Of a stretch of 64,000 nucleotides of DNA, positions 40,544 through 41,062 are shown piece by piece. Both the position numbers and the translations under genes were made by a program. The DNA comes from an uncultured Gammaproteobacteria bacterium (GTDB lineage Bacteria > Patescibacteriota > Patescibacteriia > UBA9934 > GWF2-40-263). Positions within the stretch are counted from its first letter, which is position 1, and every line of letters starts with the position of its first letter. The DNA lies in NCBI GenBank assembly GCA_964399675.1, contig CAYNRK010000002.1, positions 46,982-110,981 of the forward strand, read 5' to 3'. Below the pieces are notes generated by a model that was given only the letters and a program-made list of their open reading frames with translations, had not been told where the DNA came from and did no database searches.

Positions 40544-41062
40544 ATGAACAAAAAAGATAATCGACGATCAAAAAATATTACTGACCTATTAAAGGCCATT
40601 GGAAACAGTTGGGTTTTCGATATTGAATTTCCTCAATATGTTGGAAGGGCGTCATTCCCCGGTGGTCCTCCAAGACTTTCTGAAGAGCAGCTTCAAAAAA
40701 TCTGGAACAAGCAGAGAATTGCGTATTTAAAAAAGAAAAAATGGATTAAAACGAAAAAAATAGAAAAGCGACTTATGCTTGCGCTTACAGACAAGGGAAA
40801 GATGGAGCTTAAACGTCGTTCAATGAAATCTCGTCCAAAATTACCAAAAGGTCAACTTTGTATAGTAATCTGGGATATTCCTGAAGCGTCAAGAAAAGCA
40901 AGAAATCGTTTTAGGTATTTTCTTAAACGGTCAGAATTTAGTCAGCTGCAATTAAGCGTCTGGATAAGTGACAGAGACGTTGTTAGCAATGTTGTCGAAT
41001 TTATAAAAGAAGCAAAAATAAAAAAGTGGGTAAACGTTTTTGTTGGAAAGAAAAAAATCTAG
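40544..41062 (+). CDS. basic 172-aa protein with wHTH-like N-terminal region and Cas2-like C-terminal pattern (paralog 1); putative DNA-binding regulator
   Basis: C-terminal QLCIVIWDIPEASRKARNRFRYFLKRSEFSQLQLSVWIS fits the Cas2 pattern (V.YDI..RR...L...G.R.Q.SVF). It is a paralog of 60337-60849. Confidence 0.45.
   Translation: MNKKDNRRSKNITDLLKAIGNSWVFDIEFPQYVGRASFPGGPPRLSEEQLQKIWNKQRIAYLKKKKWIKTKKIEKRLMLALTDKGKMELKRRSMKSRPKLPKGQLCIVIWDIPEASRKARNRFRYFLKRSEFSQLQLSVWISDRDVVSNVVEFIKEAKIKKWVNVFVGKKKI

Follow-up and report, generated by a model that had tools for sequence, protein, structure and literature searches.

Why would a short gene whose product carries a Cas2-like domain be bracketed by two copies of a long palindrome? 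The question is raised twice in the window considered here, the whole stretch of 64,000 nucleotides (nt) that was analyzed, which comes from contig CAYNRK010000002.1 of assembly GCA_964399675.1 (positions 46,982 to 110,981 of the forward strand) and belongs to an uncultured bacterium placed by GTDB in the Patescibacteriota. The gene content of the window (housekeeping genes, ribosomal proteins, cell-wall genes, and MreB) is like that of the Candidate Phyla Radiation (CPR). A first-pass annotation, made from the sequence letters, had paired two genes of this window as paralogs, pointed to palindromes around them, and proposed a palindrome-binding regulator. We find that bracketing by two copies, which goes beyond what that annotation claimed, is a property of the whole family to which the two proteins belong, and we suggest that its members are probably dimeric autoregulators that bind palindromes of their own, here called ‘mini-PaaX’ proteins. 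The features on which the argument turns are listed below; the palindromes have no assigned strand.

40504 to 40537: 5' copy of the paralog-1 palindrome, imperfect, with a CGATCG center; its center lies 23.5 nt before the ATG
40544 to 41062, plus strand: gene for paralog 1, 172 amino acids (aa), with a PadR/PaaX-type winged helix at residues ~1-95 and a Cas2-like βαββαβ unit at ~104-169
41061 to 41094: 3' copy of the paralog-1 palindrome, perfect over 17+17 nt (arms AGACTATTTTCCGACGA and TCGTCGGAAAATAGTCT), overlapping the TAG stop
60301 to 60336: 3' copy of the paralog-2 palindrome, perfect over 18+18 nt (arms TTATAAAATACTTCTCGA and TCGAGAAGTATTTTATAA), abutting the TAG stop
60337 to 60849, minus strand: gene for paralog 2, 170 aa, TTG start, with the same two domains as paralog 1 and a score of 183 bits against the family hidden Markov model (HMM)
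60859 to 60894: 5' copy of the paralog-2 palindrome, in which one arm is perfect and 13/18 positions match in the other; its center lies 27.5 nt before the TTG start
28631 to 28664: third copy of the paralog-1 palindrome, standing alone, with symmetry at 18/20 and its end 2 nt from the HD-domain gene's ATG; a candidate second operator
27981 to 28628, minus strand: gene for an HD-domain phosphohydrolase (PF13023) and a candidate for the regulon of paralog 1

CGATCG-centered palindromes are thus found where the first-pass annotation had placed them, including at the start of the HD-domain gene. Its description of the upstream elements as a palindrome or half-site holds in that a site is present before each gene; the one upstream of paralog 2, which lies in the divergent region common to that gene and era, is a full site, though degenerate, rather than a bare half-site. 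The 22-nt core occurs three times in the window at up to three mismatches, versus no occurrence in 100 shuffles, and the arms of the paralog-1 and paralog-2 palindromes are unrelated to each other.

The family was defined by an exhaustive HMMER search with both paralogs. Such a profile search was needed, since a k-mer homolog search with paralog 1 recovered the query alone. It comprises 2665 cluster representatives at E <= 1e-3 (50% clustering) and 587 at E <= 1e-10, nearly all of them 150-210 aa long, and the domain PF20803 is present in 81/81 homologs returned. Named members come from Patescibacteria (Uhrbacteria, Daviesbacteria, Berkelbacteria, and ‘Patescibacteria group’), with one from Elusimicrobiota. 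From this family we sampled 12 loci, namely both window genes and ten homolog loci from different metagenome-assembled genomes whose proteins are 21-50% identical to paralog 1.

At every one of the 12 loci, a gene-specific palindrome of approximately 30-40 nt is present in one copy before the start codon and one copy after or overlapping the stop codon, in direct orientation. The sequences repeated on either side of the gene at four of the homolog loci illustrate the pattern.

L131: AACGCAACTGTCCCGATCGGGACAGTTGC
L133: TACAAAAATCGCCGATCGGCGATTTTTGT
L007: GTGACGACAAAAGTTCTCATATGAGAAAAAA, with the TGA stop within the 3' copy
L135: ACTATACGAATAAAGTGCGGTCGTCATAAA, with 10-nt arms 21 nt apart

When the 150 nt upstream of each gene were compared by shared words with the ~130 nt around and after its stop, the longest exact matches at the 12 loci were 22, 29, 31, 14, 12, 22, 29, 15, 29, 11, 30, and 9 nt, while among 3600 control placements in the same loci a shared word of at least 12 nt arose in 0.5% and one of at least 14 nt in 0.1%. 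The placement of the copies is also regular. The center of the 5' palindrome lies 11-52 nt before the start codon at the 12 loci, and that of the 3' palindrome 8-28 nt past the final base of the stop codon in 11/12, the remaining value being +54 in L135. The central hexamer is CGATCG in 7/12 loci; the other centers are CGGTCG/CGACCG (L134), the odd-numbered GCGGTCG (L135), and CGGCCG, CATATG, and CCATGG at one locus each. The arms, for their part, are unrelated from gene to gene. No further copies were found within ±5 kb of the ten homologs, and the copy at the HD-domain gene is the sole extra one in the 64-kb window.

The two copies at a locus resemble each other in more than their symmetry. 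They have non-palindromic flanks in common, often including the stop codon and last codons, and their imperfect positions are identical. L007 and L008 are syntenic orthologs, both located between an amino-acid kinase gene and rplJ/rplL. The palindromes of the two loci differ from one another, and within each locus the 5' and 3' copies match, which argues that the sites co-evolve with their gene or protein.

This specificity bears on a further explanation, in which ordinary terminators or elements of REP-like kind happen to flank the genes and the function of the protein is unrelated to them. Both 3' copies in the window do look like terminators for the convergent neighbor: that of paralog 1 is next to a T-run on the minus strand and faces a Wzy-family gene, and that of paralog 2 is terminator-like on the plus strand for a major facilitator superfamily (MFS) gene. 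These scores arise because the opposite-strand T-run mirrors the C-terminal lysine codons. Among the homologs, the 3' copies in L130 and L133 resemble bidirectional intrinsic terminators, and those in L131 and L007 do not. Also in keeping with this explanation is an imperfect palindrome at 36970-37031, just after fmt, at the left edge of the island discussed below. It has 31-nt arms that are 84% complementary, the center CGACGATCGTC as in the gene-1 site with different arms, and an A-run and a T-run on its opposite sides; it looks like a bidirectional terminator, with no cognate gene nearby, and may serve as one or, for a third family member whose gene would lie beyond the window, as operator. 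Against a chance association, however, stand the gene-specific sequences in exactly two copies per homolog locus at 12/12 loci, the separate canonical terminator that the upstream gene of L007 has ahead of the 5' palindrome, and the several sites that lack any T-run. We consider it very unlikely that these palindromes are mere terminators or REP-like bystanders.

The existence of the paired palindromes and their conservation across the family are thus plain from the 12 loci. A scan of metagenome contigs with the full-palindrome pattern gave no match, and a loose 15-base half-site pattern run against genome contigs gave 120 chance matches in unrelated genomes and none from the source organism. 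Literature searches (‘PaaX’ with ‘Cas2’, PF20803, PaaX_M, PaaX-like, CPR) found no description of this short family. The comparative pattern is robust and, as far as could be found, unreported, and a gene bracketed by what would be its own operator appears to be an undescribed conserved architecture of a family of short PaaX/Cas2-type regulators.

The proteins themselves support a DNA-binding function. Paralogs 1 and 2 are alike over nearly their full length (79/164 identities, 48%, E = 4e-43 by BLASTP), as the first-pass annotation had seen, and the cluster variants of paralog 2 differ merely in start-codon calls. A confident AlphaFold2 model, built on a 44-sequence family alignment, has a mean predicted local distance difference test (pLDDT) score of 87.4 and bears out the proposed division into a winged helix and a Cas2-pattern half. 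Its N-terminal part consists of helix 3-21, helix 47-64, a β-hairpin wing at 68-81, and helix 83-93, and is of the classical double-stranded-DNA-binding winged helix-turn-helix (wHTH) type. Its C-terminal part (β104-110, α114-129, β133-136, β139-142, α147-157, β163-169) is a βαββαβ ferredoxin fold on which Cas2 structures superpose at 1.5-1.7 Å root mean square deviation, and the best structural match for the whole chain is E. coli PaaX. In both paralogs, residues ~105-169 match PF20803, the PaaX central Cas2-like domain, with 57.0 and 56.2 bits against a cutoff of 24 (E ~1e-15). The fold and the family membership of the two proteins are thereby established.

Their relationship to Cas2 is close in sequence as well as in fold. 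The family profile matches Cas2 chains (8ia4, E = 2.8e-6), and family and Cas2 have in common the motif ...V.FD.P....R.....L...GF...QkSV[WFY], including the Asp at the end of β1. In alignments of 52 and 44 members, D111, P113, R120, R124, Q136, and S138 are invariant or nearly so. E. coli K-12 PaaX, which the family profile matches by HHalign across both domains (93% probability, PaaX residues 48-173), has at the Cas2 signature positions E for D111, L for P113, A for Q136, and M for W140. By sequence, then, the Cas2-type core of this family is more Cas2-like than the core of PaaX itself, and this retention of Cas2 residues, which are replaced in E. coli PaaX, is again a point that the first-pass annotation had not made.

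Nevertheless, these proteins are not Cas2 in the CRISPR sense. They differ from it by the fused wHTH domain, and their scores fall just under the family cutoffs: 24.3 bits (paralog 1) and 22.7 bits (paralog 2) against 24.5 for cas2 TIGR01573, and 19.6 bits for paralog 2, with no match for paralog 1, against 23.8 for PF09827. No Cas1 was found among the open reading frames (ORFs) of at least 250 aa that were scanned, in the Pfam table of 30.5-51 kb, or in the ten homolog loci, and neither the window nor those loci showed a CRISPR-type tandem array, in agreement with the first-pass annotation. Membership in Cas2 fails on these grounds (scores below cutoffs, no cas1, no array), and a CRISPR-associated Cas2 was rejected as a candidate. 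Family members are annotated variously as hypothetical, as ‘CRISPR-associated endonuclease Cas2’ (for example P0100, P0163, and P0175), or as ‘PaaX’. Since the neighborhoods of P0100 and P0163 are without CRISPR context, the ‘Cas2’ label is likely a systematic mis-annotation in CPR genomes.

PaaX, the phenylacetate-catabolism repressor of E. coli (PDB 8A39; PF07848, PF20803, and PF08223), is the closer parallel, with the same succession of an N-terminal winged helix and a Cas2-like central domain. At 316 aa, it is much longer than the window proteins, which at ~172 aa end right after the Cas2-like domain and have no match to PaaX_C, the phenylacetyl-CoA effector domain. Unlike PaaX, the window family also has an operator-like site duplicated at the 3' end of the gene. 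Membership in PaaX proper fails because there is no effector domain, the full-length model TIGR02277 gives 22.5 bits against a cutoff of 264.55, and no paa genes occur in the window or the homolog loci. Two other comparisons are looser. PadR/MarR-type repressors dimerize through helices, whereas the window proteins would be expected to do so through the Cas2-type domain and have no ligand-binding domain. VapD, a Cas2-related toxin, is weakly similar in the Cas2-like core (equivalog NF041506, 24.6 bits against a cutoff of 100, E = 2.5e-5), whereas the window family has a fused DNA-binding domain and no adjacent antitoxin-like gene. The proteins are members of the PF20803 domain family and likely work most like PaaX.

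PaaX combines a wHTH, a motif for dimerization, and an effector domain at the C terminus, binds an inverted repeat (TGATTC-N27-GAATCA), and represses its own Px promoter by exclusion of RNA polymerase (PMC9493321). A mini-PaaX probably works along similar lines. Its Cas2-type domain would be the dimerization module, as in PaaX, and the homodimer would recognize a private palindrome of ~34 bp, the two wHTHs reading the variable arms and a conserved part of the protein reading the conserved CG-NN-CG center, usually CGATCG. Cas2 proteins are themselves homodimers. The 5' copy would overlap the promoter or a very short leader, so that its occupancy would repress the gene's own transcription, like PaaX at Px. 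The 3' copy would be bound by the same protein and, as our preferred guess, would close or insulate the unit, either by looping to the 5' site ~560 bp away or as a roadblock or terminator that would stop transcription running out of or into the gene. Binding to DNA, autorepression, and what the 3' copy does are all inferred. The regulator proposed in the first-pass annotation draws strong comparative backing from the cognate palindromes that flank the homologs at 12/12 loci, and neither of the two observations that this annotation had named as contrary to it (no Cas2-like ferredoxin fold, or homologs never associated with such palindromes) was made.

The positions of promoter-like elements are consistent with such a mechanism. 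The 5' palindrome of paralog 1 contains a sigma-70-like TAGACT-18-TAAAAT that ends 11 nt before the ATG, and paralog 2 is preceded by a promoter-like TTGATC-17-TAAAAT whose -10 hexamer lies within the distal palindrome arm. At the HD-domain gene, the equivalent geometry puts GAAAAT 7 nt before the ATG, from which we infer a leaderless or near-leaderless transcript. Paralog 1 may also control this HD-hydrolase gene, through the third copy at that promoter. The solo palindrome there is also promoter-like on the plus strand, where it faces ~150 nt of GC-richer sequence (28665-28815) with no clear ORF, and close by, 29247-30089 encodes a protein with a Bro-N domain, of a kind that phages and mobile elements typically carry.

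The same elements bear on the possibility that regulation acts instead on RNA, with identical 5' and 3' hairpins in the mRNA being bound or cleaved by a ribonuclease-like domain of Cas2/VapD type that would control translation or stability. Such a mechanism would draw on the Cas2/VapD sequence signature, on the 5' palindromes that end a few nucleotides from the start codon in several loci, and on the resemblance of some 3' copies (L130, L133) to intrinsic terminators. However, promoter-like hexamers lie in or overlap the 5' palindromes of both window genes and recur just before the HD-domain gene, so that much of each site would be upstream of the transcript, and the N-terminal domain belongs to a type that binds double-stranded DNA. 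Constraint on structure alone would leave the sequences of the 5' and 3' stems free to diverge. Moreover, G·U types make up 9/57 of the arm mismatches versus ~17% expected by chance, and this lack of an excess gives no sign of selection on an RNA hairpin. An RNA-level autoregulator thus seems unlikely to us.

A mini-PaaX repressor does not account for everything that we observe, and several points weigh against it. A plain autorepressor needs the 5' site alone, and the 3' copy is unexplained by simple autorepression. The model predicts neither that this copy should be so tightly placed (8-28 nt in 11/12 loci, frequently with the stop codon inside it) nor that it should often be the better palindrome of the two. 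That the copies are direct repeats with common asymmetric flanks and imperfect positions also fits an origin by duplication or recombination. A pure dimerization role fails to explain why hallmark residues of Cas2 are kept here and lost in E. coli PaaX. The promoter-like hexamers have to be read with care, as promoters in CPR bacteria are poorly known. Finally, the small regulon suggested in the first-pass annotation has a single extra site behind it, the one at the HD-domain gene, and the claim is weaker than it had been put.

Several of these points would be accommodated if the locus were a selfish or recombining cassette. The palindromic repeats would then be cleavage or recombination sites to which the wHTH directs the protein, and the Cas2-type domain with its invariant metal-binding Asp would act at CG-NN-CG; the repeat-gene-repeat unit could then be cut out, inserted, or maintained, and a lone palindrome, 28631-28664 for instance, would be an empty or relic site. 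It is in keeping with this that the direct repetition extends to non-palindromic flanks and the stop codon, with identical imperfect positions within a pair, that the central hexamer is conserved and the arms variable, that genomic contexts vary among homologs, that a solo copy is present in the window, and that the Cas2 signature, absent from E. coli PaaX, shows no variation in 52/52 and 44/44 sequences.

On the other hand, a mobile cassette would be expected to leave traces that we do not see. There are no near-identical copies, the paralogs being 48% identical with unrelated arms, and the syntenic orthologs L007 and L008 indicate vertical inheritance. Searches by tblastn against 50,697 phage and 72,556 plasmid records returned no match, and paralog 1 has no relatives among viral contigs. 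Empty-site polymorphism was not seen among six contigs of the same population, a limited sample, which are identical across the locus; the apparent divergence of one of them (L006) comes down to scaffold Ns and one single-nucleotide polymorphism. Cas2 by itself is not known to catalyze integration. We regard the cassette as a minority possibility, on the whole unlikely, and consider it similarly doubtful that the wHTH-Cas2 proteins nick, cleave, or recombine at the CG-NN-CG of their own flanking repeats by means of the retained Cas2 residues, each locus thereby forming a self-contained genetic unit. Two known kinds of recombination unit were rejected outright: Xer/dif-type sites, as the arms are gene-specific and no common genome-wide arm sequence was seen, and integron cassettes, as a full copy of the site stands on both sides and no integrase is present.

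The surroundings of paralog 1 raise a further possibility. As the first-pass annotation had noted, both genes stand at the edge of GC-rich islands (35% GC for paralog 1 and 34% for paralog 2, compared with 51-62% in the islands and 39% in the rest of the window). The island at ~37040-40440 has stem-loop repeat units at 37070-37640 and 39310-40400, on both sides of a 547-aa ORF (37662-39305) that matches the NCBIfam model NF052498, TIGR-Tas endonuclease, from end to end (E = 3.9e-17; 62.9 bits, under the cutoff of 100). Its match to the IS110 transposase model is weaker. One super-repeat unit folds with z = -4.85. By these sequence features, the island looks like a stem-loop TIGR-TasR locus. 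Arrays of this kind that flank tasR on both sides are known in CPR bacteria (bioRxiv 10.64898/2026.09.09.750476), and flanking sequence improves the processing of stem-loop tigRNA, with no adaptation machinery known for TIGR arrays (PMC12045711; bioRxiv 10.64898/2026.09.09.750476). The super-repeats are ~195-260 nt long and by eye hold 3-4 stem-loops each, with variable segments of ~10 nt and the conserved stems GGGCGAGC/GCTCGCCC, AAGGGTT/AACCCTT, GCTGGTC/GACCAGC, and GGCACGT/ACGTGCC. For the Tas-like protein itself, we found no PDB sequence match, no k-mer homolog, and no relatives in metagenome or viral contigs, and a single-sequence AlphaFold2 model was unusable (pLDDT 39).

Since no adaptation machinery is known for TIGR arrays, a Cas2-like neighbor that might help to acquire or process the guide units at 37070-37640 and 39310-40400 was worth testing, all the more as the array ends 144 nt from gene 1 and the neighboring ORF matches the TIGR-Tas endonuclease model. 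Every available line of evidence runs the other way. A Tas- or IS110-like gene occurs in 0/10 homolog loci within ±5 kb (Pfam tables; tblastn with the Tas-like protein gave nothing below E = 2), contrary to the co-occurrence with IS110-like genes that the first-pass annotation had raised. Paralog 2 adjoins the MFS transporter gene, with no array beside it. The array has its own promoter-like site (TTGACA-17-TTAACT) and its own terminator-like hairpin (40416-40429), upstream of the promoter of gene 1, and matches between array segments and the palindromes or the rest of the window are at chance level (17 twelve-mers versus ~12.5 expected). The absence of tas, IS110, or cas1 from the homolog loci, together with the host-like GC content of the genes, indicates that adjacency to the TIGR-Tas-like island is not a trait of the family, and by composition, transcription signals, and co-occurrence the PaaX-like genes stand outside the stem-loop TIGR-Tas systems. 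A functional link between the Cas2-like protein and the islands, IS110-like genes, or the guide-RNA-like array is not supported, and an accessory role in the TIGR-Tas-like locus strikes us as highly improbable.

What remains of the association is that two of the three islands abut PaaX-like genes, which is suggestive but observed post hoc. At the third island, ~19400-24450, there is no PaaX-like gene, and at its edges there are ordinary terminator-like hairpins and no cognate palindrome. If the adjacency is real, foreign DNA settling beside long palindromes is a more likely cause than a common function. The third island has 54-58% GC, and its five or six ORFs (130-404 aa) are all without a Pfam match. 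The one beside paralog 2 (58600-60200, 57% GC) consists of a single gene for a 515-aa MFS transporter of the PgtP/UhpC-like organophosphate:phosphate antiporter type, an importer of sugar phosphates or phosphoglycerate that a CPR bacterium has probably acquired by recent horizontal transfer. In the 64-kb window as a whole, we found no tRNA gene and no Rfam match. A hairpin element of ~70 nt, itself without Rfam match, has four intergenic copies (10763-10834, 11121-11188, 35900-35973, and 47726-47794), with arms of the form ACAGTCACGTTGTATA(TA)ATTTCGGCAG... and ...CTGGCGAAATTATA(TA)CAACGTACCTGT, and may be an element of the repetitive extragenic palindromic (REP) or miniature inverted-repeat transposable element (MITE) kind or a small RNA. 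A further hairpin lies at 10886-10949.

Overall, this work corrects database labels of ‘CRISPR-associated endonuclease Cas2’ and removes a tempting, unsupported link between a Cas2-like gene and a TIGR array. The family connects Cas2 to PaaX, and so bears on how a nuclease-type fold becomes a dimerization module and on whether activity persists. With the Cas2 signature kept, a more surprising activity is conceivable: if the proteins were to nick or recombine their sites, they would represent a Cas2 relative that is free-living, independent of any CRISPR system, and acts on repeat-like palindromes, with a possible bearing on the origin of CRISPR adaptation modules or of PaaX-type regulators. 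The bracketing rule amounts to a dictionary from protein to site that could be read for wHTH specificity, for regulon prediction in uncultured genomes, and for orthogonal repressor-operator pairs. Regulation in the CPR, or Patescibacteria, is almost unexplored, and with 2665 representatives at 50% clustering this family may be among the commoner DNA-binding proteins of these bacteria.

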